In this document: one piece after another, positions 9,029 through 64,000 of the stretch
Numbering within the stretch: the first letter of the stretch is position 1
Layout of the letters: the number at the start of each line of letters is the position of its first letter
Assembly (NCBI GenBank): GCA_003545435.1
Contig: DPYI01000025.1
Location: forward strand, 19,701-83,700
Reading direction: 5' to 3'
Source of the DNA: Patescibacteria group bacterium
Lineage (GTDB): Bacteria; Patescibacteriota; Microgenomatia; UBA10105; UBA927
DNA length: 64,000 nt
The notes under the pieces: model-generated
The model's database searches: none
What the model was told of the DNA's origin: nothing
What the model saw: only the letters and a program-made list of their open reading frames with translations
Program-made: the position numbers and the translations under genes

Positions 9029-10095
9029 ATTTTTTTTGTTCGCATGGATAAACGTTTCATTTCCGACCAGCTATATCCAAATACCATGAGGAGAGACATA
9101 ATCGGATGGAGAAACCACGCGATATCAGGTTTTGATATAAATCCCTTCACGCTTATATATAAGGGTTGAATGATTGTTAGAGAAAATACTATAAATGCAG
9201 TTAAGTTGCGGCGGTCTTTGGGGGAATGGGAGTTATAGACTAAATATCTCCGTTTTCCCTTCAGGGTATCCGTAAAATACTTTTTTACCTCCACCCGCCT
9301 TATTACCTGATCCATAATATTCGGGCGGGAAACATGAATGATGCTGTTTTTTACGACGCCTACTGTATCATACCCCATACAAAGAAGCTCTCTATATCCG
9401 TCTGTATGGTAGAACGGCTTCCCTTTTCGGACCACTTTCCTAAAAACTTCAGCGCGTATCATACATCCATTATCTCCCATAACAGGCTGGTTATCTTCAG
9501 TGAACCGGACTATAGTATATTTTTGTGTATCTTTTATTATTTCCCCTTTATCATATTTCATCTGATCCATGCGGATTTTATCTGACTTTTTCAAATAGTA
9601 CAGTGTCGGATCGGGGGATCCGATTAATGCAAAGTATTTCGTAAGAATATCATCAGACGGATCGTATCCATTGTGCATGGAAAACGTCGAAAAAACATCT
9701 TTTTCCTTAAAAGGAGCCACCATGTCAGTCAGCCAACTTGACGAAGTCATTATGTTGTCCGATTGTAAAATCAAAACGATGTCTTCCTTGATATATGATA
9801 AAGCCCGGTAATAACGACCTAATCCTTCATTCTGATCATTTATAAAAGATAATATCCGGGGGTGATATTGACGTGCGACGGCAAGCACCTTTTTATGGCT
9901 TCCTCCGTCCAATATATAATGCCGGAATAGCCCCTTATACCGTTGTTTGCGTACAGCCTCAAGACATCTGGTAAACACTGCGATGTTTGGATTAAACGTA
10001 TTGGTGATAATTGCAATGGAAGGATTACTCATGGGTAGTGTGAATCTATAATTCATCTTTTTGTATGGTATTTTTCTGTTTCTTGTACCATGCAT
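9025..10095 (-). CDS. GT2-family glycosyltransferase with C-terminal membrane anchor
   Basis: 356 aa; N-terminal SIAIITNTFNPN... GT2-like; C-terminal hydrophobic helices. Start uncertain (alternative ATGs at 10056 and 10032), which affects the overlap with the SDR gene. Confidence 0.5.
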   Translation of the reverse strand: MHGTRNRKIPYKKMNYRFTLPMSNPSIAIITNTFNPNIAVFTRCLEAVRKQRYKGLFRHYILDGGSHKKVLAVARQYHPRILSFINDQNEGLGRYYRALSYIKEDIVLILQSDNIMTSSSWLTDMVAPFKEKDVFSTFSMHNGYDPSDDILTKYFALIGSPDPTLYYLKKSDKIRMDQMKYDKGEIIKDTQKYTIVRFTEDNQPVMGDNGCMIRAEVFRKVVRKGKPFYHTDGYRELLCMGYDTVGVVKNSIIHVSRPNIMDQVIRRVEVKKYFTDTLKGKRRYLVYNSHSPKDRRNLTAFIVFSLTIIQPLYISVKGFISKPDIAWFLHPIMSLLMVFGYSWSEMKRLSMRTKKI

Positions 10096-36760: not shown

Positions 36761-37303
36761 TTATTCTGAAAGTTCCGAAACTGTTCGTCCCCTGATTGCG
36801 ACTGACTGAAGAATAAGAGATTGTATATCTAATTGGATAGATGCACTTTTCTCCGGCACCCACAGAAATGATTTTGGTACTGTTGCGTTTATAGTAGTAA
36901 GAACTTCCGTATGTTTCACAGCAGCCGACCGAACTGTTTCTGATAGATTCCGAACGTCTTTCCCCTCCAACATAGCTTTACGGATATATTCAGGTATGAC
37001 TGAAAATTCTTCGTTTGAGCGATTTAAAGCATCAACCGCCAAGAGATACTGCTGATACTCAAATAGCGTTTTTGCTTCCACTACGTATTTATCCGAAAGT
37101 CCGATATGGTATTTAATTTGTGCAATATTACCGAAATACCAATATCCTTTCAGGATATCGAGAATTCTAGATACGTTATACAGCTTATTTCCCGGCATAT
37201 AAGAAGGGTATGGAAGAGTGTACGCTGCGCGTACCAATGACCAATGACCAATGACCAATGACAAAAAAATAGCTATACCGGCATGTAACAGGAATTTCTT
37301 CAT
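36761..37303 (-). CDS. Small secreted/periplasmic protein with signal peptide (hypothetical, 180 aa)
   Basis: MKKFLLHAGIAIFLSLVIGHWSLVRAAY signal peptide; the h-region is encoded by a (CCAATGA)x4 heptamer tract. Confidence 0.45.
   Translation of the reverse strand: MKKFLLHAGIAIFLSLVIGHWSLVRAAYTLPYPSYMPGNKLYNVSRILDILKGYWYFGNIAQIKYHIGLSDKYVVEAKTLFEYQQYLLAVDALNRSNEEFSVIPEYIRKAMLEGKDVRNLSETVRSAAVKHTEVLTTINATVPKSFLWVPEKSASIQLDIQSLILQSVAIRGRTVSELSE
37234..37261. repeat. Perfect heptanucleotide tandem repeat (CCAATGA)x4 inside the 5' end of CDS 36761..37303
   Basis: Read directly from the sequence: gtaCCAATGACCAATGACCAATGACCAATGAcaaaaaaa; encodes LSLVIGHWSLV on the minus strand. Confidence 0.9.
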
Positions 37304-38970: not shown

Positions 38971-39851
38971 GAACGAATTCTACAGAATTTCTTGGTTTTC
39001 CGATACGCAATCGGATAGTGCAGGGCCGAAAATAAAGAAAAGAGAAATCCGTATATCCCGTCCAATATACCCTTGTAACGGATGGCGAGAGCGAAAAATG
39101 TAACCATAGGTTTTACCACTAAATAGTCCAGAGCCACTACGAATGAATTTCTTGTGTCATGTATGATATTTTGCGAAAGGAGCGATGTGTAACGATCCGC
39201 ACCCTGCCAATACTTCTTCCAAGTCGGATGAGACATGTGAATGAGATCGTGTGAAAGCCATCCGACTGCCCCATCGATGGCGATCTGCTCATGGACGCTT
39301 TTACTTGGAAAATGCGCTGTACCGTTTTTGACTAACCGTATAACTCCGTCTGGATAGGTGCCCGCGTAGGTCATGGGGTGCCCTAAAAAATAATTACGAC
39401 GCGGTACAAAAAATGCCGCTGTATCTCTCTTGTTTGTACCAGTCTGTTCATCCCGATCAAAAACAAGCTGCTGATGTCTTTCAAATAATTTTTTCTTATT
39501 CGGATCTATAACACGCTCTCTAAGTTGTTGTTGGGACATATGAATAACTTTCAGAATTTCATCCTGTAGGTCCGGCGTAACTATTTCGTCTGCATCCAAT
39601 TGTAAAATCCAATCTCCCGTACAAGCGTCCAATGCTTTCTGTTTATTGATATGAAATATTGGCGGATTATCGGTTTGGATGATTTTTGCATCAAAATCTC
39701 TTGCTATCTCAATAGTCCTATCGGTTGACCCTCCGTCTACGACAACGATTTCATCAGCAATATCAGCAATAGATGAAAGGCAGGATTTTATATTGCTTTC
39801 TTCGTTTTTTACCGCCATTGCAACCGATAAAACTATTTTCTTTTTCTGCAT
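38967..39851 (-). CDS. GT2-family glycosyltransferase (soluble)
   Basis: Start at MQKKKIVLSVAMAVKNEESNIKSCLSS...VVVDGGSTDRT (ATG 39851). Confidence 0.75.
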   Translation of the reverse strand: MQKKKIVLSVAMAVKNEESNIKSCLSSIADIADEIVVVDGGSTDRTIEIARDFDAKIIQTDNPPIFHINKQKALDACTGDWILQLDADEIVTPDLQDEILKVIHMSQQQLRERVIDPNKKKLFERHQQLVFDRDEQTGTNKRDTAAFFVPRRNYFLGHPMTYAGTYPDGVIRLVKNGTAHFPSKSVHEQIAIDGAVGWLSHDLIHMSHPTWKKYWQGADRYTSLLSQNIIHDTRNSFVVALDYLVVKPMVTFFALAIRYKGILDGIYGFLFSLFSALHYPIAYRKTKKFCRIRS

Positions 39852-41521
39852 ACAATAAAAACGCATCCGGATAATACAATAAGCAGAACCGATGCTAAGC
39901 TTATCATAGTAGCCACACGACGACGTTTCGTATCAGTAAATTTAACAACCACATAGTGATCGCCTTCATCTATCCAGAATGTCATGAGTCCTCGATACGT
40001 TGAATCCTGAAATTGAAGTCCTGCAGAAATTCCGTCAACATAAATTTTCCAACCGGGGAAATACAGTGTATTTTCAACCAGACGTGTTTGCTTCGTTGCT
40101 CGCACTCGATATTCATGTATAGTTGATAAACGTCTCTCTGCCTCGATTTTCGCGTCTCCGTCAATAACCTCCATCGGATTGGCAGGAGTATGTTCCATAA
40201 ATCGTACGGACCAAATCGGGCTGCTTTCTCCTGTATCTGTAGTCCCTGCATAAATACCGGCATATGATGTATCCCCGTCTGCTGCGTACCCTTTCGGATG
40301 CCACATATATATAGTTGAAGCTATTATCAACAAACTGCACACGATAATGTATGAGCTGCAATAACGCGAAAGAAAGCGAGCCAATACCGACGGTAATTCG
40401 ACTATTCCTATTCCGCCAATAACTGCAGCAATAAATGTGGTTAAGCTTAAAAATCTCCAGGGAAACTGAAAATTCTGAAGAATTTTAATCCTTGTCCAAA
40501 TAAATTCGGACGCGGAGGTCATTATAAATAAAGAAAAAATGAATATCATGAGGGAAGCAGCCAGTAGAATCCGTACCCTCATGTTTTTCGATTTCAATAT
40601 AATAATAATTGATGTTATTAATCCTATCCATTGAAAATATCCAATGGATTTTGTAAGAGTCGCAGTTCCTCCGTAATTCCAAGGCGAATAAAAAAACCAT
40701 GAAAATGGTACAAAACGGGTCATCGCTTCTCCTGCGGTTACAATATTTCTCAGCGTGTATTTACCTTCAAAAAATGCAGGGATCCAAAAAAATGCGGAAA
40801 GACCAAAGCCGAGGAGTATAAAGTATAAAGTATTAAGCATAAAGTATAAAGATAGTTTTGATTCATAAACGTAAAGATAAAGAACATATAATCCAATAAC
40901 GGGTAAAAACATGAGCGATATAGCATTGTGAGATAAAATAAATAATGCAAATGACACAGTTAATCCAATTCCATGCTTGACACTTGATACGTGATACCTG
41001 ATACTCTTTTCCCGTATTGCAAGTTTGTAAAGGAAATAACAAATCAGGGGCGGAAAAACAAAAGCCGCGTGTTCACCTATGGCACCCCTTACATAAAGGT
41101 CAACAAACCGATACGGAGCAAATCCATAAAGAAGCGCACCAACAAATCCTACCTTCGTTCCCCACACCTCTTTCATCCATACATACATGGTTAGCAGGCT
41201 TGCTATATAGCTGATAACAAAAACGGCCTTAGTCGCATCCACAAATGAAAATCCGATAAAATGAAGCACGGATGCCGTATACGAAGAAAATGGATAGAGA
41301 AACATTAAGATGGGATGACCATAGCCCCAATTTAAATTTCCCGCCCAACGGGGAATCAGAATCCCCTCCTGTAATGAAGCATAAAAATTAGCAATTCGAA
41401 CCACATGATCCCTGCCATCATGCGTTATCGGAAGTCCGGGATGGAAAAAACTTATAAGAGGCAATAAGGATATGCCCAAAATAATAAGAGGAATAAGTGA
41501 TAGTAAGGTACATTTTTTCAT
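39833..41521 (-). CDS. Polytopic membrane protein, paralog family A
   Basis: Start trimmed to MKKCTLLSLIPLIILG (ATG 41521); ITHDGRDHVVRIANFY...IPRWAGNLNWGYGHPILMFLYPF; contains a degenerate heptamer tract at 40816..40850. Confidence 0.55.
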   Translation of the reverse strand: MKKCTLLSLIPLIILGISLLPLISFFHPGLPITHDGRDHVVRIANFYASLQEGILIPRWAGNLNWGYGHPILMFLYPFSSYTASVLHFIGFSFVDATKAVFVISYIASLLTMYVWMKEVWGTKVGFVGALLYGFAPYRFVDLYVRGAIGEHAAFVFPPLICYFLYKLAIREKSIRYHVSSVKHGIGLTVSFALFILSHNAISLMFLPVIGLYVLYLYVYESKLSLYFMLNTLYFILLGFGLSAFFWIPAFFEGKYTLRNIVTAGEAMTRFVPFSWFFYSPWNYGGTATLTKSIGYFQWIGLITSIIIILKSKNMRVRILLAASLMIFIFSLFIMTSASEFIWTRIKILQNFQFPWRFLSLTTFIAAVIGGIGIVELPSVLARFLSRYCSSYIIVCSLLIIASTIYMWHPKGYAADGDTSYAGIYAGTTDTGESSPIWSVRFMEHTPANPMEVIDGDAKIEAERRLSTIHEYRVRATKQTRLVENTLYFPGWKIYVDGISAGLQFQDSTYRGLMTFWIDEGDHYVVVKFTDTKRRRVATMISLASVLLIVLSGCVFIVCRKRK

Positions 41522-41525
41522 ACTT

Positions 41526-43019
41526 CTATTGTGCCATACGTTTCTCAATAAGAAAACCTGATGGCAGCTCTTTTGTAGAAACAACAGCTCCGTCCTTCAC
41601 AACCGTTTCCAACCACCCTTTATATGACCACGGTTTTCCTGCATCCGGCTCCATGAGAAGATAAAACACGCCGCGTTTCTCGTTATGGGGAACATAATGG
41701 TACTTCTTTGTTCCGATCCACCAAAAAAGATAATCATACGGATACGTATAGACAGGGGGAGTAAACACTAATACTCCGAATGGCGTGCCTTTTGCGTCTT
41801 GAAATATCGCTTCTATTGCCTCCGTTCTTCCTTTAATTTTTTGAGTCCCGCCGAAATCGTCATAGTCATGTTTCCACATCTGGCGCGTATACGGAATTAC
41901 AGACTGAATTAATTTTACAAAAAACAGGAGAATTATTATTTTACCAAAAATATTCTTTCTAAAAAGATAAGAACACAATAGTCCCACAAGCACTATGTAC
42001 AGAATGGGTAATTCCAGCAGCCACCACTCCCATAGAACTGCTTTATAAAAAAGAAATATAACGAAAATGATGCATGGAATACTAAATAAACTTATGAGAA
42101 ATAGTTTATATTCCTTCTTTATTTTTCTATCGCATATGATTATTCCCAATAAAACGACACATGCCGGGATGAACAGTGTTCTATATGGAAAAAAAGGGAA
42201 AGTACCGAATAAATTTGAGGAAAAAACCGCCACATGATCATAAAAAAGTTTTGACAAAGAAGGAGGGTGGGGTTGGGTTGGTGCTGTTACTGCCATTCGC
42301 CATATGCCTTTTAGATTTAAAAATTGGTGCCGAAGATCAAAAATCAATATCGGAATTAACGGAATGAATCCCCCGATCATGCTATCCTTAAGAACATCCG
42401 GACGGATTTTTGTTGTACCGAATACTATAATGCACGTTGCAATCCCCAATGTTGCTGCCGTCGCAATTTCAAAATGCGTCATGAGTCCTAAAAGAAAAAA
42501 AATGAAAAACCACGAACGATGACCGCCCTGAAACATCCGGTAGAGTGCCTCTACATAAAAAACCGTAATAAGCGGGATGACAAAGGGGGGCCATGCAAAT
42601 CGCGATTGAATGGCTATAGACGGAGATATGGCTATCAAAAAACTGATACAAAATCCTGCAACTCTTCCAAACCTGAGGGAAAAAATGTAATACGCAAGAA
42701 TGACAGTGCTTAATCCTATGCAGAACATGAGAAAAAGCTGACCATAAGGATTACCCTGAAAAAACAAAAATGGGATTGCCAAAAGATAATACCATCCGGC
42801 TCCCTGAAAAAATCCTCCCCCGCCGCCGACTTCGTCTCCGATAAGAGGCAGCGCATGATCAATGACAATTGACTTTGCAGCAAGCCAATGTTTCCCCTGA
42901 TCAAAACCAAAAAGGAAGTTCTTATTCAGAACTTCGATGGAACGTGGGGCGCTGGCAATACAAAGCAGGAAAAAACAGATAAAAAGTGAAATAGCAGTCT
43001 CCCTTTTAATCAATTTCAT
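41526..43019 (-). CDS. Polytopic membrane protein, paralog family B (tandem duplicate of 43071..44579)
   Basis: 497 aa; GFDQGKHWLAAKSIVIDHALPLIGDEVGGGGGFFQGAGWYYLLAIPFLFFQGNPYG is near-identical to the neighbouring paralog; AAAGGA RBS-like sequence upstream. Confidence 0.6.
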   Translation of the reverse strand: MKLIKRETAISLFICFFLLCIASAPRSIEVLNKNFLFGFDQGKHWLAAKSIVIDHALPLIGDEVGGGGGFFQGAGWYYLLAIPFLFFQGNPYGQLFLMFCIGLSTVILAYYIFSLRFGRVAGFCISFLIAISPSIAIQSRFAWPPFVIPLITVFYVEALYRMFQGGHRSWFFIFFLLGLMTHFEIATAATLGIATCIIVFGTTKIRPDVLKDSMIGGFIPLIPILIFDLRHQFLNLKGIWRMAVTAPTQPHPPSLSKLFYDHVAVFSSNLFGTFPFFPYRTLFIPACVVLLGIIICDRKIKKEYKLFLISLFSIPCIIFVIFLFYKAVLWEWWLLELPILYIVLVGLLCSYLFRKNIFGKIIILLFFVKLIQSVIPYTRQMWKHDYDDFGGTQKIKGRTEAIEAIFQDAKGTPFGVLVFTPPVYTYPYDYLFWWIGTKKYHYVPHNEKRGVFYLLMEPDAGKPWSYKGWLETVVKDGAVVSTKELPSGFLIEKRMAQ

Positions 43020-43025
43020 AGAATC

Positions 43026-43061
43026 CTTTACTGTAATTCAATCGATTGAATTACAGTAAAG
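43026..43061. promoter_or_regulatory. Perfect 36-bp palindrome between tandem family-B paralogs (candidate operator/terminator/recombination site)
   Basis: CTTTACTGTAATTCAATCGATTGAATTACAGTAAAG is fully self-complementary; it lies 6 nt after the stop of 43071..44579 and 6 nt before the RBS of 41526..43019. Confidence 0.6.
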
Positions 43062-43070
43062 TAAGTCGAA

Positions 43071-44579
43071 TTAATTACTGCTCTTTATGGTTCGTTTTTC
43101 AATAATAAATCCTGACGGAAGTTGCCATGTTTTTTCGATGGTACCGTCTTTAATAACCGTCTCTATCCAACCCTTATGCCTCCATGGCTCTCCTGTATCC
43201 GGTTCAATCAAAAGATAAAATATACCCTTTTTTTCACTCGGGGGTATGTATCCGTATTGGCTTTGTCCGTACCACCATATGAGATAGTCGTAGGCATATG
43301 TATAGATGGGAGGCGTAAAAACAAGAAGGCCGAATTTTTCTCCCTGAGCATCTTTAAAAATAACGTCCAGCGCATCTTTTTTCCCCTTAATCTTATGAAC
43401 ACCGCCATAATCCGACAATTCATTTTGAAATGACTGATGTGTTTTTTGTCCGTATGACAGAATCATGAGTCCTAAGATGCTTACAACAATACATTTCATG
43501 ATCAGCCCCTGTTTCCATGCATAAGAGGTGATAATGCCCCCTAATACGGTATATATCACTGTAAGTTCCGATATCCACCATGGCCATAAATCGTCTTTAT
43601 AAAATATAAATACAAAAAAAAGAACTGCCGGCAACAGACATAAAAATCCGATAAAACGTTTCTTAACGAGAGGAATTTTTCTGTCCATAATCATCGCAAT
43701 TGATCCAGCTGCCATAAAACCTACAAGGTAAATTTTCGGAATATAGGTAACCTGAAAAGCCCGGTAAAACTCATCGGAAAATATCATCCTGTGATTAGAT
43801 AGTATCTTCAGATACTCAATGGTTGAACCAACATATCGTTTTGATCCGGTAAGGGTTTCCAATACTCCTCTGCTGTTTAGAAAATCATGCCGAATATCAA
43901 ATATGATCAGCGGAAAAAGAGGTATCAAAAAGCATACTAAACCAAAAAGCAAATATCTTATTGGAATTTTTTCCTTCATGAGAAATGTTCCGAAAATGAT
44001 GACTGTCGAGATAAAAAGTGAACCCGCTGTGGCTATTTCAAAATGCGCCATAAGACCTATGGTAAAAAATACCCCTAAAATATACCGGTATTTTTTTTCA
44101 CAAACCAAGTAAACATTCCGCAACAAGACAACGGTAAGAAAAGGTATAACAAACGGAGGCCATGCAAATCGTGAATTAGAAATAAGAATAGGAGCAAGTG
44201 AAAGCATAAACGCAACCGCCAACACTTCTTTTTTGCTTAATAATGTATAAAAAAGCGACAGAAACAGAATAATTATTCCGACTCCGATACCAAACATTAA
44301 AACGACTGCTCCATATGGATCGCCTTGAAAAAAGAAAAACGGAATTGCCAAAAGATAATACCATCCGGGCCCCTGAAAAAAACCTCCCCGCCCGCCCACT
44401 TCATCTCCTATAAGCGGAAATTTGTGGTCAATGACAATTGATTTTGCCGCAAGCCAATGTTTTCCCTGATCAAACCCGAAAACATAATTCCCGCTGATAA
44501 GTTCAATCAACCGCGGCATTGCGGCAAGTATAATAATCCCCACACTGACGAGAATAACGACGAGTGCTTTTTTGTTCAT
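43071..44579 (-). CDS. Polytopic membrane protein, paralog family B
   Basis: 502 aa; GFDQGKHWLAAKSIVIDHKFPLIGDEVGGRGGFFQGPGWYYLLAIPFFFFQGDPYG; C-terminal GIFYLLIEPDTGEPWRHKGWIETVIKDG. Confidence 0.6.
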   Translation of the reverse strand: MNKKALVVILVSVGIIILAAMPRLIELISGNYVFGFDQGKHWLAAKSIVIDHKFPLIGDEVGGRGGFFQGPGWYYLLAIPFFFFQGDPYGAVVLMFGIGVGIIILFLSLFYTLLSKKEVLAVAFMLSLAPILISNSRFAWPPFVIPFLTVVLLRNVYLVCEKKYRYILGVFFTIGLMAHFEIATAGSLFISTVIIFGTFLMKEKIPIRYLLFGLVCFLIPLFPLIIFDIRHDFLNSRGVLETLTGSKRYVGSTIEYLKILSNHRMIFSDEFYRAFQVTYIPKIYLVGFMAAGSIAMIMDRKIPLVKKRFIGFLCLLPAVLFFVFIFYKDDLWPWWISELTVIYTVLGGIITSYAWKQGLIMKCIVVSILGLMILSYGQKTHQSFQNELSDYGGVHKIKGKKDALDVIFKDAQGEKFGLLVFTPPIYTYAYDYLIWWYGQSQYGYIPPSEKKGIFYLLIEPDTGEPWRHKGWIETVIKDGTIEKTWQLPSGFIIEKRTIKSSN

Positions 44580-44583
44580 CTTA

Positions 44584-46284
44584 TCAGTCCTTTCTATCTT
44601 TTATTTCAATCGCTGACATGCCGTTTAAGAATGTAATATGTGCGTTATTTCCATGCGGGATTTCGCTTGTGGAACCGACATAGAGAATACTCCCGTCAAA
44701 TTCCTCGGTTTGCCAATGAAGCGGCCGGAATTCATACTTATCAAATGCATTCCCCCGCTCTGCAAAACTTCCTGATTTTGTTCCGCCTCCTTCTAAATAT
44801 TTCACTGGATCGAACTGGGTATAAAACAGATAGAACATGTATGATTGTTCAAGTCCTGTTGATACGACGACCTTTTTATATTTGTTTTTTACCAACTCCG
44901 TATATGCTACTGCTTCTTTATATCCGTATTGCCAGTGCTGAGAATACTCCCTGTTCATAATAAGGAAATATTGAACACAATAGTATGTAATATTAAACAG
45001 TGCAAAACAAAAAATAACAGTCAGAAAACAATAAAAGACTATCTGCTTCATCTTTGATTTTTGATCCGTCGGCTGACGGATGATTTTTGATCTTACGAAT
45101 ACGATTCCAACCGCGGTAACTATTTGAAATATCGGAAGAAATACTAATGTTCGAATTGCATGCGGGAGTCCAGACGTCGGAGCAGCAGCAATTGGAGAGA
45201 TAAGAAACCAACCAAATAAAAATTGACAGACTTTTCCTTTGTTTCTTGCAAGGATATATAACCCGATAAGGAAAAACGGTAATTCCCAAATGTACAAAAG
45301 ACCCATATCAGGAGCATGATGACGGGGATTGTCTCCTGTTAAAAAAAGCCATTTCAGTGAAAAATGAGACAAATATCCTGACGCAATGGTTTTTGCATAT
45401 ACAAGACGTCTGTTGTCCAATAGTTCTCCCATGATGTCATGATTTTTTTTATCCTCTTCTATCTTGGGAATTGTTCTTCCCAAAAGTCCGATTTGATCGG
45501 AGAATGAACTTGTCCCTTTGAGCCGAAGCACTGCAGTTTTATCGAAAAGAACCGGAATAATCGGCAATACGGTCAAAAATCCGACGATGACGGCCCCTAA
45601 TACGAATCGCCTCTTGTCTTTTGACAACAATTCCTTTCTCCATGTGACGACAAGAAGAATCACAAGAAGAGGAAGAAAAATCCTCTCGCTGTGATATGCA
45701 TATAAACCAAGGCCAAACAGAAATGCCGATAAAAAAAGAAATCCCCTTTTCCGTAATCCCGCAAGGAAACACGTTACTGCCCAAATATTTATCGTAATTC
45801 CGGAATTTGCCTCAAAAGCTATTCGGGAAAACTGGATGTGCCAGGGAGAGATAGCGAGAAAAAAACTAGAGAGTAGAGCAATGAGGGCAACCGAATCTTT
45901 ATAATCTTTATAATTGTTATAATTTTTATTTAATTGAACAGGAAGTACCAAGACTAAAAAATAGACTCCAACAACAGCCAATATCCCCATAACAGCAGAG
46001 GGTAGGCGTGTTGACCACACGCTTAATCCAAATAGAGCTACGGACGGAACTGTCAAGTACGTGTATAGCGGAGGCTTATAATCATCAAATGAACGGATCG
46101 AAAGAGGAAGAAATGTTCCATATTCATCCTTTCCTGTTTTTGAAATCGAATATGCATTATATCCTAAAGCCGTTTCATCCCAATCCGGACTGGGAGGCAC
46201 GTCACCCAATTGATACAATCGGAAAAAACCGGCTATCAGAACAATCAGGCTTACAAGAATCGCTTGTTTTATTTTCTCATTCAT
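44584..46284 (-). CDS. ArnT/PMT-like GT-C glycosyltransferase (GT39-like), paralog family C
   Basis: 566 aa; TM1 then PPSPDWDETALGYNAYSISKTGKDEYG (DE motif); more than 10 TM segments; C-terminal soluble domain ending LNGMSAIEIKDRKD. Confidence 0.65.
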   Translation of the reverse strand: MNEKIKQAILVSLIVLIAGFFRLYQLGDVPPSPDWDETALGYNAYSISKTGKDEYGTFLPLSIRSFDDYKPPLYTYLTVPSVALFGLSVWSTRLPSAVMGILAVVGVYFLVLVLPVQLNKNYNNYKDYKDSVALIALLSSFFLAISPWHIQFSRIAFEANSGITINIWAVTCFLAGLRKRGFLFLSAFLFGLGLYAYHSERIFLPLLVILLVVTWRKELLSKDKRRFVLGAVIVGFLTVLPIIPVLFDKTAVLRLKGTSSFSDQIGLLGRTIPKIEEDKKNHDIMGELLDNRRLVYAKTIASGYLSHFSLKWLFLTGDNPRHHAPDMGLLYIWELPFFLIGLYILARNKGKVCQFLFGWFLISPIAAAPTSGLPHAIRTLVFLPIFQIVTAVGIVFVRSKIIRQPTDQKSKMKQIVFYCFLTVIFCFALFNITYYCVQYFLIMNREYSQHWQYGYKEAVAYTELVKNKYKKVVVSTGLEQSYMFYLFYTQFDPVKYLEGGGTKSGSFAERGNAFDKYEFRPLHWQTEEFDGSILYVGSTSEIPHGNNAHITFLNGMSAIEIKDRKD

Positions 46285-47977
46285 ATATCACGAGAATCGG
46301 ATTACCGTTTAATACGTTAACCGTATGCAATATTTTTTTATCTCTTGTTTCAGTTCCTGCTGGAGCAATATAAAGACACGTACCGGTGCAATCCTCAGGC
46401 ATATCGCTCGTAAAATGGTATTTCCCAAATCCATACACATGGTAAAACCCTGCTGCATCAAACGATGCGTTTTTCGTACGGAAGAATTCATGAGGATCCG
46501 TTTTATTATAGAAAAGAGTGTACATATATGGTCTGCCGATTGATCCAGTCATATATATCGTGTCATAGTTGCTTTCGATAGGTTGGATGAACTGCAGTGC
46601 TTGTTTGTATCCGTATTGCCACTCGCCGGAGAATTCCTTTGGGTAATGAACGTAATAATTGTGGAGATAATATATAACGCCGAAGCCATAGAAAGATGCG
46701 AGCAATAAACAAAAAGCAAACAAGAATACTTTCCTTGTCAGCTTCATTTTTATACGTAATACTGTCGTTAGTATCCCGTATGCTGTGAATATCTGCCACG
46801 TAGGAAGGCTATTGAGGGTCCGCAGGGCATGCGGTGTCTCCCTGGCAACAGCAGCAGGGGCTATTGCCATGATCATCCAATATAAAAGAAAGAGTGCAAT
46901 TGATCGATGTTGTACCAACATCGATAATACCCCTATCGCAACAAACGGAGCTTCAATCAGATACAACTGTCCCACATCCTGTATGGAAAATTTCGGATTT
47001 CCGTCGCCTTTTATAAATAAATATTCCGGCTGGAAATGATCAAGAAAATGGAGCATATAGCTCCTGGCATACCCAACGCGGCGGTTAAACAGTATTTTTG
47101 CCCACCATGCATGCCTGGCTTCTTCAATTCTTCTGTTGGAAACAAGAACAATCTCCGGATCACTGAAAATATTTACTTCCGTAAAACGAAGTCTGGCCTC
47201 TTTTGAGAGTAAATGAGGAATGATCGGAATCATGAAAAAAACTGCAATAATGACACCTGCTCCAAAAAAGCGCAGGTGTTTCTTTACGGCATTTCGTCCC
47301 ATAAAAAGCAGTCCTCCTGCCATAAGCGGAACAAAATACCGAGCACTGTTAAACGTATAGACAGCTCCGACAAACGGAATCCATGCTGCAATCCATAATT
47401 TCGGCCTGTCTATGGCCTTTAACACAGCGATGATTCCCAGTACGACAAAAAATAAAGCGATATTTGCCTCAAATCCTGCCCGGGACAAATTAATATGCCA
47501 TGGGGAGATTGCCAACAGCAAACTTGATAACAAAGCAATTTGAAATTTGAAATTTGAAATTTGAAATTTATTTGAAAATTGAAAATTGGATTTTGAAAAT
47601 TTGCTGTTGTTAAAATCAGATCTAAATAATTCAATAACTAAAAAATACGTAAGCAGTATCGTCAGCGTCCCAAAAAGGGCAGAAGGAAAACGCACTGCAA
47701 ACTCATTTAATCCAAAAACGGCAACAGATGGTACAGTAAGATAAATGCCAAGAGGCGGTTTATAATCTCCATAGGCAGTAAACGTATCCAGAGGAAAAAA
47801 TCGACCATGCTCATCCTTGCCGGTTTTGAGAATCGAATAGGCATTGTACCCGATTGATACTTCGTCCCAAGAAAGAGACGGTGGATTTCCAGACAGCTGA
47901 ACAGTGCGGAGAAAAAAAGCAAAAATAGTAATAATAAACAATAAGCAAAATTGCTTTTTCATACAAATTACTATCAC
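46277..47977 (-). CDS. ArnT/PMT-like GT-C glycosyltransferase (GT39-like), paralog family C
   Basis: 566 aa; PPSLSWDEVSIGYNAYSILKTGKDEHG; contains a low-complexity loop NNSKFSKSNFQFSNKFQISNFKFQ encoded by heptamer repeats. Confidence 0.65.
   Translation of the reverse strand: MIVICMKKQFCLLFIITIFAFFLRTVQLSGNPPSLSWDEVSIGYNAYSILKTGKDEHGRFFPLDTFTAYGDYKPPLGIYLTVPSVAVFGLNEFAVRFPSALFGTLTILLTYFLVIELFRSDFNNSKFSKSNFQFSNKFQISNFKFQIALLSSLLLAISPWHINLSRAGFEANIALFFVVLGIIAVLKAIDRPKLWIAAWIPFVGAVYTFNSARYFVPLMAGGLLFMGRNAVKKHLRFFGAGVIIAVFFMIPIIPHLLSKEARLRFTEVNIFSDPEIVLVSNRRIEEARHAWWAKILFNRRVGYARSYMLHFLDHFQPEYLFIKGDGNPKFSIQDVGQLYLIEAPFVAIGVLSMLVQHRSIALFLLYWMIMAIAPAAVARETPHALRTLNSLPTWQIFTAYGILTTVLRIKMKLTRKVFLFAFCLLLASFYGFGVIYYLHNYYVHYPKEFSGEWQYGYKQALQFIQPIESNYDTIYMTGSIGRPYMYTLFYNKTDPHEFFRTKNASFDAAGFYHVYGFGKYHFTSDMPEDCTGTCLYIAPAGTETRDKKILHTVNVLNGNPILVIYE
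47537..47603. repeat. Heptanucleotide tandem repeat (AATTTGA)x4 perfect plus degenerate copies, inside CDS 46277..47977
   Basis: Read directly: AATTTGAAATTTGAAATTTGAAATTTGAAATTTATTTGAAAATTGAAAATTGGATTTTGAAAATTTG. Confidence 0.9.
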
Positions 47978-59771: not shown

Positions 59772-60646
59772 CAATAGTTCTTCAGTCGTTTTAGAAAGAT
59801 CGGGAAGAAAAAAGGTAATGCGCGGCAAAATCCTTTCACCATAATTGCATCTCCCCGTATTATACTTGTACACAATCGTATTGGAATCCATATCGTACCC
59901 AAAAAGAGTTGATATGCTGATGCGTGTTTCCAGATAAAGAAAAACTGATTGCGGAAAGCGGTTTCTTTTATCATATTCCTGGAATAACGCTGAAAAATTT
60001 TTCCGTCTTCATGAAAATGCTTTACCACACTCTTCGGTTCAAATAATACCCGGTATCCCTTTTTTTTGGCTCGATATGAAAGGTCAATATCTTCCCAATA
60101 AAAGGGGTTATATATCGTATCCATACCTCCTAATTCATTCCATATGGTACGTCTGAAGGCACTACTTCCGCCGGACACCCACGCAGTGTCCGTTTTATCT
60201 ACTTCTCCCCGTTTATGTATATAAAACCCTTTTTCCCATCGACCGATTCCCCTGCCCCGCAAAACTATTTTCCCTTTCTCTATGCTTTTATCCATACACC
60301 CTACGGCAAATACAGTCGGATCGGAAAAATGAGAAATAAGCGGCTCAAGAAATCCTTTTTCCGGTTCAACATCAGTGTTCAGAAGCACAACGATATCGGT
60401 TTTGGCTTCCCGTACACCCACATTGACCGTAGAAGCAAACCCCTCATGCCTGTCTTTTCTAATAGTCCTGATATCGGGAAAATTCTCCTGTATATATGAA
60501 ACAGACTCATCAGTAGAACAATCATCGACAATGATAAGTGTTGCACTCCCGCTGTGCTTTGCCACCTCGCTGAGATGTTTCTCCAACAACAGTTTTCCAT
60601 TCCAATTCGGTATGATGATACTGACGGACATTTTTGGTGTCTTCAT
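59768..60646 (-). CDS. GT2-family glycosyltransferase (soluble)
   Basis: 292 aa; MSVSIIIPNWNGKLLLEKHLSEVAKH...IIVDDCSTDESV; 4-nt convergent overlap with 58062..59771. Confidence 0.75.
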   Translation of the reverse strand: MKTPKMSVSIIIPNWNGKLLLEKHLSEVAKHSGSATLIIVDDCSTDESVSYIQENFPDIRTIRKDRHEGFASTVNVGVREAKTDIVVLLNTDVEPEKGFLEPLISHFSDPTVFAVGCMDKSIEKGKIVLRGRGIGRWEKGFYIHKRGEVDKTDTAWVSGGSSAFRRTIWNELGGMDTIYNPFYWEDIDLSYRAKKKGYRVLFEPKSVVKHFHEDGKIFQRYSRNMIKETAFRNQFFFIWKHASAYQLFLGTIWIPIRLCTSIIRGDAIMVKGFCRALPFFFPIFLKRLKNYC

Positions 60647-62337
60647 GGGGTTTTTATATTTCCTTGGGCAATATATATTGCCGGTGTTCCGTCTAAATAG
60701 TTAATGCGATACAAAGGATCAATAGTAGGGGAAAATTCCTTCGGCAAACCTACAAATAATGTTCTCTTTTTGCTAAAATCATCCAAACTGAATTTGTGGA
60801 ACTCAAATATGTCATACGTATTCCCCTCTTCTCCCCATCCTCCGGATTTCGTCCCTCCCTGTTTGCTATACAAAGCCGGATCGTATTTTGAATAATACAG
60901 CATAAATATATAAGGCCATTCCAATGCCGAAGAAACAACAATGCGATCATAAGAACTTTTATTTTTCATAAGATATTCCGTCATTTCCTTCCTCCCGTAT
61001 ACCCAATCTTTGGATCTTTCATAAGGGATATGCAATATATATTGATGTACATAGTAGTATGAAGATAAACAAATCACGAAACCGAAAATTCCCATAAAAA
61101 TATGTACAGGAATCCTTTTTTCCCGTAAAAAATCATATACACAAAAAACGCCATGCGCTGTGATGATCATTAAAGGAATTGTCATGCCCAAAACCCGTAT
61201 GGCATGAGGTATGTCCCAAGTAATCGACGCAGGAATTGGAGCAATAAGAATCCATAAAATAATATATATCGCCTCACGTTTATCGGATTTTTGTACAAGA
61301 TAATAAAGTCCTAACGGGATAAAAGGAAGCATCCACAAAAAGCAAAGTCCGACAAACGGAGTATGATGCTGTTTTTCATCGTAATCAAAAAAAAGAAAAG
61401 CGGGAGAAAAATGGGTAAAATATCCTTTCAAAACAATATCGGCAGATGTAAATACTGTGTTGTCATGGAATAATCTTCTCGGGAGATTAATACCAAGTTT
61501 CGCATCATAAAACATCTCTTTCTCTTTTTGTTTATATATATCAAGTGCCTGCTGAGTGCTAAATACGCTTGTTCCTTTTACCCGAATATGAACATTATAA
61601 AAAAGCGTGTCACCAATGAGAATAGTGCCGAAAAATCCTGCCGCTACAATAAATCTGACCAAATCATTTTTATTTACTTTCCTCAGATCTTTCCAATAAA
61701 GAAGTGTTAGCACAAGGCCGAGCATGGGTGCAAGAACACGGAAACTTAGGTAAGAGTAGGTTGCCAAACCAAACGAAAGAACCGAAAGCAGAAGAAGTCC
61801 GGGTCTATGCTTCATTCCATAAAGAAACAGAGTTGCCCCCAATGTGATAAAAAAGAGTCCAACGTTAGCCTCAGCAGCCATCCTGGAAAATTGAATGTGC
61901 CACGGAAGAATTGCCAGAAGAAAAGAGGAAAGAAGAGGTATTCGTTCATTGTTAATTGTTGATTGCTTATTGATTGTTGCATTTTGTCCAAGCGCACAAA
62001 GTCCCTTCACAAGAAAAAACAAAGATAACACAGTTAGTACCCCGAAAAATGCTGAAGGGAATCTGACGCTAAAGTCGTTATATCCAAATACTGCAATAGA
62101 TCCGACCGTTAGATATGCATAAACGGGAAGTTTGTAATCATCCAATGATCGGAAATATACCGGCAGAAATTTCCCAAATTCGTCTTTCCCGGTTTTGAGA
62201 ACGGAATACGCATTGTATCCGAATGCTGCTTCATCCCAATTTAAAGACGGCGGGACTGACGGAAACTTATAAAACCGGAAAAATACCGCTATCAAGAGAA
62301 TGCATCCTAACGCAATTTTCACAAAACGCTTCTCCAT
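60643..62337 (-). CDS. ArnT/PMT-like GT-C glycosyltransferase (GT39-like), paralog family C
   Basis: Start trimmed to MEKRFVKIALGCILL (ATG 62337); PPSLNWDEAAFGYNAYSVLKTGKDEFG is homologous to 44584.. and 46277.. Confidence 0.65.
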   Translation of the reverse strand: MEKRFVKIALGCILLIAVFFRFYKFPSVPPSLNWDEAAFGYNAYSVLKTGKDEFGKFLPVYFRSLDDYKLPVYAYLTVGSIAVFGYNDFSVRFPSAFFGVLTVLSLFFLVKGLCALGQNATINKQSTINNERIPLLSSFLLAILPWHIQFSRMAAEANVGLFFITLGATLFLYGMKHRPGLLLLSVLSFGLATYSYLSFRVLAPMLGLVLTLLYWKDLRKVNKNDLVRFIVAAGFFGTILIGDTLFYNVHIRVKGTSVFSTQQALDIYKQKEKEMFYDAKLGINLPRRLFHDNTVFTSADIVLKGYFTHFSPAFLFFDYDEKQHHTPFVGLCFLWMLPFIPLGLYYLVQKSDKREAIYIILWILIAPIPASITWDIPHAIRVLGMTIPLMIITAHGVFCVYDFLREKRIPVHIFMGIFGFVICLSSYYYVHQYILHIPYERSKDWVYGRKEMTEYLMKNKSSYDRIVVSSALEWPYIFMLYYSKYDPALYSKQGGTKSGGWGEEGNTYDIFEFHKFSLDDFSKKRTLFVGLPKEFSPTIDPLYRINYLDGTPAIYIAQGNIKTP

Positions 62338-62341
62338 ATTG

Positions 62342-64000
62342 TTATTCATAACGTAATTGTACTGTGTGAATACCCGCCGGGACAACTATTCCTATAAAAA
62401 TATAGTTGGTTCTGAATGTCTTTACCTTCTTTCCATCTACAAACGCTTTCCAATTTTTGTGGTATATATTTCCGATAAAAAGTAATCTCTGGGCATTCGT
62501 CTGAACCGAAACGTCAATGGCGTTGTCCCTATATGTTGTTATATCTGCTCTCTCTTCAGATGAAATCGGGTCTTTATCGGTGTAAACTTCTTCCTCAATG
62601 ACTCCCTGTGTCCCCATCTGAAACGAGGGAGCGTACAGAGCCTCAATAATCTTTTTTTCTTCCCGTATCACGTCAACATGGTCAAGCAGGTATACCCGAG
62701 GGAGCACGCCCATAAACTCATACACTCTCGTTTGGCCTTCCTGCATGATTTTTTGAAAACGACTATCAAGAATATCTGAAAGGGAAAGAACAAAACGTAC
62801 TCCAAGAAGCTTAAATAAAGGAGAGGTAATATTTTTAGGTGTCACAATGCGGTTAAAACCGAACGGTCCGGTTATATTCGGTTCTCCCCGTTCCATAGCT
62901 GCTATAAACTTTTCATATCTGACACTATACAAAGGATCGTACCCGGATATTGATTCGATGCCGTAATACAAGCTCACATTCGGCGGCATGATTCTGTCGT
63001 CCACGGAGGTTATCCGATACGGTTTTGGTTGTTTTTCAAAAAAAGAAATAATTTCTGTTTTTGGAAAAAATAGACGTGAATCAGTAAACGGAGTAAATTT
63101 CCATGCAAAACGCGACAGATCAAAAAAAGATATACCTATAATGAGTACTGCTCCGGTCAAGGGGATAACCATATTTCGTCTCTTGTTCATTAATTCAAAA
63201 ACAGTACGAATGATAACCACAAGGAAAATTAAAATGCATATAAAAGTCGGAAAAAGGATGTTCCGGCTAGTTACGTCTAATTGTTCCTTTGGAATTCCAT
63301 ACGTATTATTTTTTACTACATACCATATGCATCCAAATAATATTGCTGCCACGGCCACTGTTATTACCGTATATTTTTTCCTGCTGTTATGTATCCAATC
63401 TTCTAATCCGATTGCTGCCAACACGCACAGTCCGACATCAACAATGGCAAGCAGTCTTGTCGGTTGAAGCGATGAAAGGATCGGAATCCGAAAAACATAC
63501 GGTGTGCCAGAAACAGGTGTGGGAAGAGCAAATAGAAGTCCGATAAGTACTACAGAAAACCAAAATGCTATATGACGTTTTTTCTTTGAAAAGATTGAAT
63601 ACAGTACAAAAAATAATCCAGCTATTCCGATATATCCGCAAAACTCCCCGTAATTCCATATCCCCCAATAGTTTAGAGTAGCAGGGTTACCAAAAAAATC
63701 AGGGGTCACAAACTGTATAAGATTTTGAAAAGGAAGAAAAAATCCTTCATTTTTAACTAATGCTCCGTCCTGTAATCTGCTCATACCCGGGAGTTCTGAA
63801 AGAACGGGTATCCAATGGACAGATGTCAATAACATAAACAAACCGAGACTTCCCGCAATTTCCAAAAATACACCTGTACGAAAAATAGCGGATGGTTTTT
63901 GATCTAAAAAACGGAAAATCGCGTAGGCAATCAATAAAATAAAGGAATATAAAAATACCTGACTGTGTCCGGCAAAATATTGTGCTGCTAAAACCAAACC
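62342..64000 (-). CDS. YfhO-family membrane glycosyltransferase, C-terminal about 550 aa (gene start lies beyond the window end)
   Basis: The ORF runs to position 63997 with no N-terminal LWNPY region in the window; C-terminal NIYHKNWKAFVDGKKVKTFRTNYIFIGIVVPAGIHTVQLRYE matches the YfhO C-terminal signature. Confidence 0.6.
   Translation of the reverse strand, partial: GLVLAAQYFAGHSQVFLYSFILLIAYAIFRFLDQKPSAIFRTGVFLEIAGSLGLFMLLTSVHWIPVLSELPGMSRLQDGALVKNEGFFLPFQNLIQFVTPDFFGNPATLNYWGIWNYGEFCGYIGIAGLFFVLYSIFSKKKRHIAFWFSVVLIGLLFALPTPVSGTPYVFRIPILSSLQPTRLLAIVDVGLCVLAAIGLEDWIHNSRKKYTVITVAVAAILFGCIWYVVKNNTYGIPKEQLDVTSRNILFPTFICILIFLVVIIRTVFELMNKRRNMVIPLTGAVLIIGISFFDLSRFAWKFTPFTDSRLFFPKTEIISFFEKQPKPYRITSVDDRIMPPNVSLYYGIESISGYDPLYSVRYEKFIAAMERGEPNITGPFGFNRIVTPKNITSPLFKLLGVRFVLSLSDILDSRFQKIMQEGQTRVYEFMGVLPRVYLLDHVDVIREEKKIIEALYAPSFQMGTQGVIEEEVYTDKDPISSEERADITTYRDNAIDVSVQTNAQRLLFIGNIYHKNWKAFVDGKKVKTFRTNYIFIGIVVPAGIHTVQLRYE

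Follow-up and report, generated by a model that had tools for sequence, protein, structure and literature searches.

A heptanucleotide array in a membrane glycosyltransferase gene

We analyse a stretch of 64,000 nucleotides (nt) from a Patescibacteria group bacterium (assembly GCA_003545435.1, contig DPYI01000025.1, positions 19,701 to 83,700 of the forward strand), which we call the window; coordinates refer to positions within it. Our subject is a tandem array of the heptamer AATTTGA that lies inside the coding sequence of a membrane glycosyltransferase. A prediction made earlier from the sequence (hereafter the original prediction) had proposed that this array switches the enzyme on and off, and thereby alters the structure of a surface glycan. 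The elements on which the analysis turns are as follows.

47537..47569, minus strand: perfect heptanucleotide array (AAATTTC)x4.7, encoding KFQISNFKFQI, codons 132-142 of a 561-amino-acid (aa) protein
47570..47602, minus strand: older, decayed array of 33 nt, made of AATTTTC-type units with 5- to 8-nt variants, encoding KFSKSNFQFSN
46277..47962, minus strand: gene for a PMT/GT39-like, lipid-carrier-dependent glycosyltransferase with the GT-C fold, 561 aa (Pfam, AlphaFold2, Foldseek and open reading frame map)

Read directly, the forward strand from 47537 to 47569 consists of four copies of AATTTGA followed by AATTT, a perfect run of 33 nt and about 4.7 copies. Tandem Repeats Finder (TRF) extends the call to 47537..47603, with period 7, 9.9 copies and 79% matches, the degenerate copies reaching up to 47603. 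The perfect heptamer tract with degenerate copies that was originally reported at 47537-47603 is thus confirmed by both routes. On the coding (minus) strand the perfect unit reads AAATTTC and begins at codon 132 in phase 0. The whole tract comprises 66 nt, or 22 codons, and encodes KFSKSNFQFSNKFQISNFKFQI in the open reading frame (ORF) 46277..47977, which bears out the accompanying claim that it specifies a low-complexity loop. Within the decayed half, two copies of AATTTTC are still perfect. We regard the tract as a genuine coding heptanucleotide microsatellite, built from two abutting arrays, one young and perfect and the other older and decayed.

When the window is searched for perfect runs of at least three copies with periods of 2-12, only two are found, at 47537 and 37233, and both are heptamers. 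Runs of at least four copies with periods of 4-9 occur in 0 of 200 dinucleotide-preserving shuffles of the window. The heptamer tract at 47537 is therefore real and beyond chance. An assembly artefact is excluded as well, because every full-length contig that was checked carries the identical tract, across NCBI, JGI and ENA records with differing naming styles.

The host gene and the predicted loop

The gene at 46277..47962 is the first in a co-directional run of GT-C-type genes on the minus strand, and it overlaps the next gene by 8 nt. Its probable start is the ATG at 47962, which yields the 561 aa used in public records; an alternative GTG start lies at 47977. Two Pfam families match above their curated cut-offs, PMT with 27.7 bits (cut-off 22.7) and PMT_2 with 27.6 bits (cut-off 26.1). 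An AlphaFold2 model built on 26 homologs has a mean predicted local distance difference test score (pLDDT) of 76.6 and a predicted template modelling score (pTM) of 0.78, and its best Foldseek matches are the GT-C enzymes AglB, PglB, STT3, ArnT, ALG12 and Pmt4, with E-values from 4e-7 to 8e-4. The acidic residues D38 and E39 of the first outer loop (W37 D38 E39 in alignment numbering) are invariant in the 26 homologs. That is, the protein has the PMT and PMT_2 profiles, the multi-pass fold and the conserved acidic residues in the first extracytoplasmic loop that characterize a PMT/GT39-like GT-C enzyme.

Assignment to the ArnT family proper (GT83, the L-Ara4N transferase) was considered and rejected: the likeness is at the level of the fold only, with a TM-score of about 0.5 and 10-12% identity. 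A sequence profile of the family finds no PDB chain at E <= 0.01, and 'ArnT-like' should for that reason be taken as a description of the fold and not as a family assignment; the name attached to this gene in the databases is an automatic JGI label.

In the model, residues 123-138 have pLDDT below 50 and lie between helices 92-127 and 140-156. The residues encoded by the tract fall there, and the perfect array also encodes the start of the modelled helix 140-156, which carries an invariant SPWH motif. The tract is thus predicted to encode most of a disordered loop between transmembrane helices 3 and 4. A cytoplasmic N-terminus is usual for GT-C enzymes, and counting helices from such an N-terminus under the GT-C topology would place the loop on the extracytoplasmic side.

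Near-identical contigs and homologs belong to Candidatus Gottesmanbacteria and other Microgenomates of the candidate phyla radiation (CPR). With LCFF01000001 of GCA_000998865.1 the window shares 99.98% identity, and we assign its genome to Candidatus Gottesmanbacteria, here an uncultured bacterium of groundwater.

Unit changes, reading frame and conservation of length

We computed the effect of unit gains and losses on the reading frame. Gain or loss of one or two units brings the frame to a stop at aa 153-186, while gain or loss of three units keeps the frame. The original prediction that unit changes would frameshift the enzyme is correct, then, for one- or two-unit changes, a change of three units being in frame; and the out-of-frame variants do end in a nearby stop, as it had suggested checking. 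In two respects the gene has the form of a contingency gene: the coding repeat has a unit that is not a multiple of three (7 nt, at codons 132-142 of 561), and gain or loss of a unit shifts the frame and truncates the product. The length variation that defines such genes, with both ON and OFF lengths observed, did not appear across assemblies and proteins. Because a one- or two-unit change would end translation at aa 153-186, the tract is best read as a latent hotspot for frameshifts and not as a proven switch.

The evidence on length comes from several sources. The 66-nt tract is identical in all 10 contigs retrieved via the exact protein, a retrieval biased to the intact allele, and the gene is likewise intact in contigs retrieved via neighbouring genes, which is free of that bias. 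A metagenome scan for the two flanks separated by a variable gap retrieved no allele of any length, but this population is absent from the collection scanned, and the result carries no weight. Three 21.7-kb contigs align to the window with zero indels across three heptamer tracts, so that the tracts at 37233 and 40815 (described below) are unchanged too. Near the tract, strains are separated by single-nucleotide polymorphisms (SNPs) alone, among them those at 46091, 46194, 46456, 46519 and 47429; across the contigs, SNP differences reach about 0.3%. Protein clusters at 90% identity contain no length variants for the gene, for its paralog or for the 180-aa gene that carries the other perfect heptamer. 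About 15 billion proteins were searched for the six predicted variant products (-3 to +3 units), and none occurs there. With the N-terminal 142 aa as query, no short protein more than 77% identical was returned, and hence no truncated product of this gene is on record. More generally, the window and 75 related loci contain 24 heptamer runs, every one of them within a continuous reading frame.

The array is fixed at one length in the sampled population. Programmed on/off switching, as originally proposed, is accordingly not supported: the tract is invariant, and no variant allele appears among the 15 billion proteins. An invariant repeat number had been named at the outset as the outcome that would speak against switching, and at the level of assemblies this is largely what we find, in a population whose SNPs reach about 0.3%. 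The suggested comparison of repeat length across related genomes gives a divided answer, since the length differs in a 59%-identical ortholog (about 2.7 units) and is invariant in this population.

Several apparent variants were examined and set aside. Apparently split genes in four contigs (L079, L085, L096 and L044) had the look of frameshift variants. They trace back either to scaffold gaps with runs of N, as is the case for L044, or to the deletion of 88 nt between segments resembling paralogs, in every case away from the tract. Short N-terminal fragments of GT39 proteins on long contigs (P0205, P0208, P0222, P0232, P0236 and others) were considered as OFF alleles of other lineages and rejected, as their frameshifts come after the loop and they contain no heptamer array. 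Read from the protein sequences, those frameshifts adjoin runs of F or K codons, which suggests homopolymer slips.

The loop in paralogs and homologs

Two further GT39-like genes in the window allow the same loop to be compared among paralogs.

44584..46284, minus strand: adjacent GT39-like paralog, 566 aa, 37% identical (ORF map, Pfam and alignment)
45894..45929, minus strand: in-frame 9-nt tandem repeat x4 with 88% matches, encoding NYNNYKDYKD, in the adjacent paralog's loop at the aligned position (TRF)
60643..62385, minus strand: third GT39-like paralog, an ORF of 580 aa
61939..61972, minus strand: decayed heptamer array with units of the CAATNAA type, encoding ATINKQSTINN, at the corresponding loop in the third paralog

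The heptamer tract is indeed absent from the equivalent position of the adjacent paralog, which has NYNNYKDYKD there, as originally stated; what was overlooked is that this segment is itself a 9-nt tandem repeat. Repeat-derived sequence thus occupies the same loop in all three GT39 paralogs of the window. Among homologs the length of the loop ranges from 1 to 44 aa, and period 7 best describes several of the loops. The repeats in the paralogs' loops, together with this range of lengths, indicate that the loop is a permissive site.

More distant relatives bear on the age of the array. The 59%-identical ortholog (P0016) reads AAT TTC AAA TTT CAA ATT GCT at the same junction, about 2.7 units, and its array shares with that of the window both the phase and the junction with helix 4. 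The neighbouring paralog of this ortholog reads HFQILNFKFQIALISS. The core of the array, shared by the ortholog and its paralog, is therefore old, and its copy number has drifted between lineages; this ancestry, like the permissiveness of the loop, counts against the inference of programmed switching. A homolog from Levyibacteriota (L063) carries a perfect (AATTTTC)x4.4 at the same loop, the unit being that of the decayed half of the tract in the window.

Some related loops show other peculiarities. On one scaffold of a related genome (L044, 2560..2860), two versions of one GT39 loop flank a gap of N; one is 44 aa long and heptamer-derived, and the other is short and reads YNHYRNYNDYNHY. This arrangement suggests either co-existing alleles of the loop or mis-joined paralogs in that sample. 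Three homologs (P0010, P0157 and P0210) have apparent inserted elements in variable loops: in P0010 an AHCHMS motif occurs in both long insertions, while P0157 and P0210 share a GC-rich loop segment (STGGPP...). Small mobile or repeated elements may target these loops.

Heptamers elsewhere in the window and in related loci

The window contains two other heptamer arrays outside the GT39 genes.

37233..37262, minus strand: second perfect heptamer array, (TCATTGG)x4.3, encoding LSLVIGHWSLV (TRF; equal in length in all assemblies)
40815..40851, minus strand: imperfect heptamer array (TRF: AGTATAA x5.3, 86%) in a 562-aa membrane-protein gene, ORF 39833..41584

The array at 37233..37262 sits in the hydrophobic N-terminal segment, an apparent signal peptide or membrane anchor, of a 180-aa DUF5667-like gene at 36761..37303. 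The array at 40815..40851 directly precedes a conserved LGFGLSAF motif, and homologs from other lineages have heptamer runs of other units there.

We scanned 968 kb, made up of the window and 904 kb of related Microgenomates loci, at periods of 2-15 for perfect runs with at least 14 self-matching positions. The 75 related loci had been selected around GT39 genes. The scan found 13 perfect runs, of which 12 have period 7 and one has period 8; the other periods contribute none. The over-representation of period 7 is that of the prokaryotic class of long heptanucleotide simple sequence repeats (SSRs). According to Mrazek 2007, as summarized in PMC4692102 and PMC4679880, heptanucleotides are the most abundant class of long SSR in prokaryotes, and they are ascribed there to polymerase slippage. 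Given so generic a bias, the recurrence of 7-nt repeats in one locus is to be expected and is no evidence of design. The original prediction was therefore right that this recurrence is not due to chance, as the shuffles and the period scan show, and the step from recurrence to programmed switching does not follow. The heptamer runs of the window all lie in its glycosyltransferase cluster (3/3), which is not significant (estimated p about 0.1); the 75 loci cannot serve to test such enrichment, because they were chosen around GT39 genes.

Heptamer runs with differing units recur at homologous sites of GT-C proteins, namely in the loop after helix 3, before the LGFGLSAF motif, and in the helix before a YYLHNYY motif. 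They were located in the window and in eight of the related loci (L001, L006, L014, L019, L034, L044, L057 and L063). The arrays are T-rich on the coding strand and encode mostly hydrophobic or aromatic peptides, which membrane proteins tolerate. One unit, CATTGGT/TCATTGG (LVIGHWS), is found in two unrelated contexts, the array at 37233..37262 and the GT39 loop of another Gottesmanbacteria genome (L006, 6317..6341), and L019 has a one-base variant, GGTTATT. TCATTGG is a rotation of TTGGTCA, which we take to be a tandem heptamer unit of the cyanobacterium Calothrix.

Beyond these loci, more than 120 metagenome contigs (L102..L221) with GC contents of 0.24-0.67 carry (AATTTGA) arrays of 5 to 16.9 copies, and the first 80 of these contigs (L102..L181) were analysed in detail. 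Related units that encode ISNLKSQ or ISDFRFQ frequently adjoin the arrays, many of which fall in ORFs of very small size and are presumably intergenic. On one contig of 61% GC (L179), an in-frame (AAATTTC)x5 at 9637..9671 lies in a 1138-aa ORF resembling leucyl-tRNA synthetase; it encodes VKFQISNFKFQIE directly before a TTRPDT motif, and, by comparison with the E. coli and Thermus enzymes, presumably replaces a variable segment of equal length. The idea that AATTTGA is a special, widespread unit was rejected, since control heptamers of the same composition are as common or commoner in viral contigs (7 matches for AATTTGA versus 9 and 26). A literature search found no paper in which an (AATTTGA) array is printed in a prokaryotic context.

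Competing explanations

The explanation that we favour, and consider probable, is that the tract arose by slippage as a microsatellite insertion which preserves the frame, in an outer loop that tolerates changes of length. The process would have begun from an ancestral core of two to three units (AAT TTC AAA TTT CAA ATT, encoding NFKFQI) at the start of helix 4, such as is observed in the 59%-identical ortholog and in its neighbouring paralog. This core would then have been expanded by replication slippage, which fits the prokaryotic bias towards heptamers. Only frame-preserving outcomes would have survived, aided by 1-nt indels in runs of A and T; we infer this from the 5- to 8-nt units of the decayed half. 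The loop, finally, appears to tolerate any length, as seen in the 1 to 44 aa of its homologs and in the other repeats of its paralogs.

Several observations weigh against this account. A perfect heptamer of 4.7 copies is hard to build by single-unit steps without passing through out-of-frame states, and perfect arrays at the same sites in divergent lineages are also what conserved contingency loci look like. Assemblies, moreover, show the majority allele only, and nearly all the samples represent one near-clonal population of at least 99.7% identity, so the power to see switching is low. There is also a hint of heterogeneity in the reads behind the assemblies. Two Logan contigs (k=31) of a single run break at the tract, one (L090) starting at 47540 and one (L101) ending at 47566; another Logan contig (k=31) starts at 47541, and a MEGAHIT contig starts at 47588. 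In a de Bruijn simulation, a pure 4-copy allele produces no break, whereas the addition of k-mers from any array of at least 5 copies produces breaks at exactly 47540 on the right side and 47566 on the left side. The left-hand partial protein was predicted by this simulation and then found, on Logan contig SRR6482636_102, which ends at 47566; this contig turns up in 4 samples. For the full-length protein there is no Logan source, though its neighbour proteins have one. Taken together, the breaks may reflect a minor, longer allele. The hint is ambiguous, because the more than 120 metagenome contigs described above, which are unrelated, also carry (AATTTGA) arrays of at least 5 copies, and another member of the community could supply the k-mers that cause the breaks. 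At the second perfect heptamer, at 37233, no contig break was found among the 24 longest contigs.

The tract might alternatively be a contingency locus, that is, a selected slipped-strand switch of the pglE type, in which a change of one or two units truncates the enzyme and varies the surface glycan within the population. Expression of the translationally overlapped downstream paralog might then fall too. The unit is suitable, not being a multiple of three; a surface-glycosylation gene carries the tract within its first quarter, with stops at aa 153-186, in a locus rich in GT-C paralogs; and phase variation of pglE by a heptanucleotide repeat is a precedent (PMC7157529). The k=31 breaks match the k-mers of an array of at least 5 copies, copy number differs between lineages (2.7 versus 4.7), and arrays recur at homologous sites. 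Yet neither the assemblies nor the 15 billion proteins contain a length variant or an OFF allele, each of the 24 heptamer runs lies in an intact reading frame, half of the array has been left to decay, the 9-mer in the paralog's loop is in frame and cannot switch, and arrays of at least 5 copies in other organisms could account for the breaks. On balance we find a contingency locus unlikely. A broader form of the same idea is that Microgenomates, with their small genomes, keep in-frame heptamers at fixed GT-C sites (the loop after helix 3, and before LGFGLSAF) as contingency loci, at which rare slippage turns single transferases off and on and so diversifies the surface glycan; this we hold to be doubtful. 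If true, it would to our knowledge have no forerunner among phase-variation systems in the candidate phyla radiation.

The array might instead drive in-frame variation, in steps of three units or 7 aa, of a hypervariable exposed loop under diversifying selection, for example by phages or host contact, with the gene remaining active throughout. The outer-face position expected from the GT-C fold would suit such a role, as would the extreme variability of the loop in length and sequence among homologs, several of whose loops are repeat-derived. But alleles of plus or minus three units are not on record, all members of the population share one loop, the predicted disorder gives no sign of a binding role, and neutral variation would yield the same pattern; we judge this possibility unlikely. 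A programmed -1 ribosomal frameshift was also considered. Slippery sites follow the rule X XXY YYZ, and AAATTTC fits it (A AAT TTC), in phase once in the tract. The attraction of the idea lies in this sequence pattern only. The shifted frames end within about 10-37 codons past the tract with no conserved continuation, and the other arrays at the same site (CATTGGT and AATTTTC) do not fit the pattern. We therefore reject ribosomal frameshifting as highly improbable. The slippage-born, frame-preserving insertion remains the reading that we carry forward.

If the tract nevertheless switches, phase variation of surface glycosylation driven by SSRs would extend from host-adapted pathogens to uncultured CPR bacteria, and would offer a sequence-only handle on envelope variation in these organisms. 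The case also counsels caution: a perfect repeat in a surface gene whose unit is not a multiple of three is insufficient by itself to prove a switch; the long repeats of prokaryotes are heptamers by default, and permissive loops of membrane proteins gather them. The recurrence of in-frame heptamers with different units at the same GT-C sites across Microgenomates may be the more useful lead.

Other features of the window

From 34443 to 64000, over about 30 kb, genes for large membrane proteins are densely packed in the window. This part contains three GT39-like genes, at least four YfhO-like genes, PTPS_related-like genes, pairs of paralogs of about 500 aa and two GT2 genes. The share of sequence given to envelope glycosylation is unusually large.

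A perfect 36-nt palindrome (CTTTACTGTAATTCAATC|GATTGAATTACAGTAAAG) occupies 43026..43061, in a gap of 51 nt between paralogous genes of 502 aa and 497 aa. Its sequence resembles a hairpin of the terminator type, and the ends of several contigs fall no more than a few bases away, among them those of L081 at 43030 and of SRR6482636_102 at about 43032, the latter calculated from the contig's length.

At 44342..44429 (L079, L088 and L096), scaffold_2165 of ANAN16-1 (SAMN03842445) lacks 88 nt of the 502-aa gene. The missing nucleotides lie within a segment sharing 84% identity with the neighbouring paralog (44311..44482 compared with 42742..42913). The loss could reflect recombination between the paralogs or an assembly artefact.

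Comparison with known systems

At the level of the enzyme, the closest relatives are ArnT, PMT, PglB, AglB and STT3. The protein of the window resembles them in its GT-C fold, its PMT and PMT_2 matches and the invariant acidic residues of its first outer loop; it differs in that the sequence profile of its family finds no solved structure.

At the level of the repeat, the tract resembles the long heptanucleotide SSRs of prokaryotes (Mrazek, Guo and Shah 2007, as reported in PMC4692102 and PMC4679880) in the dominance of period 7, the diversity of units and slippage as the proposed cause. In those summaries the cases from Xanthomonas, Nostoc and Beggiatoaceae are mostly intergenic, whereas here the arrays are in frame in membrane-protein genes and recur at the same protein sites. 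The tandem heptanucleotides of the cyanobacterium Calothrix PCC 7601 are a further close system.

The nearest functional parallel is pglE of Neisseria, in which a heptamer likewise lies in the gene of a surface-glycosylation transferase, and frameshifting unit changes would likewise inactivate the enzyme (PMC7157529). Isolates are seen to differ in the repeat length of pglE and in its ON/OFF state, whereas no variant was found here. The product of pglE, in addition, is a soluble-type transferase and not a GT-C membrane enzyme.

In Haemophilus influenzae, heptanucleotide SSRs include TGAAAGA in the hmw1A/hmw2A promoter, AACAACC in the gene of a TonB-dependent receptor, and AATTTTG x14 inside hmw1a (PMC2651432). 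Like the tract of the window, they are AT-rich heptamers and candidate mediators of phase variation. They differ from it in being mostly 6-38 copies long, variable between strains and in some cases out of frame (PMC2651432), whereas the tract of the window has 4.7 perfect copies and is invariant. The coding AATTTTG of hmw1a, taken as a circular word, is the mirror image (the same-strand reversal) of the AATTTTC that makes up the decayed half of the tract.

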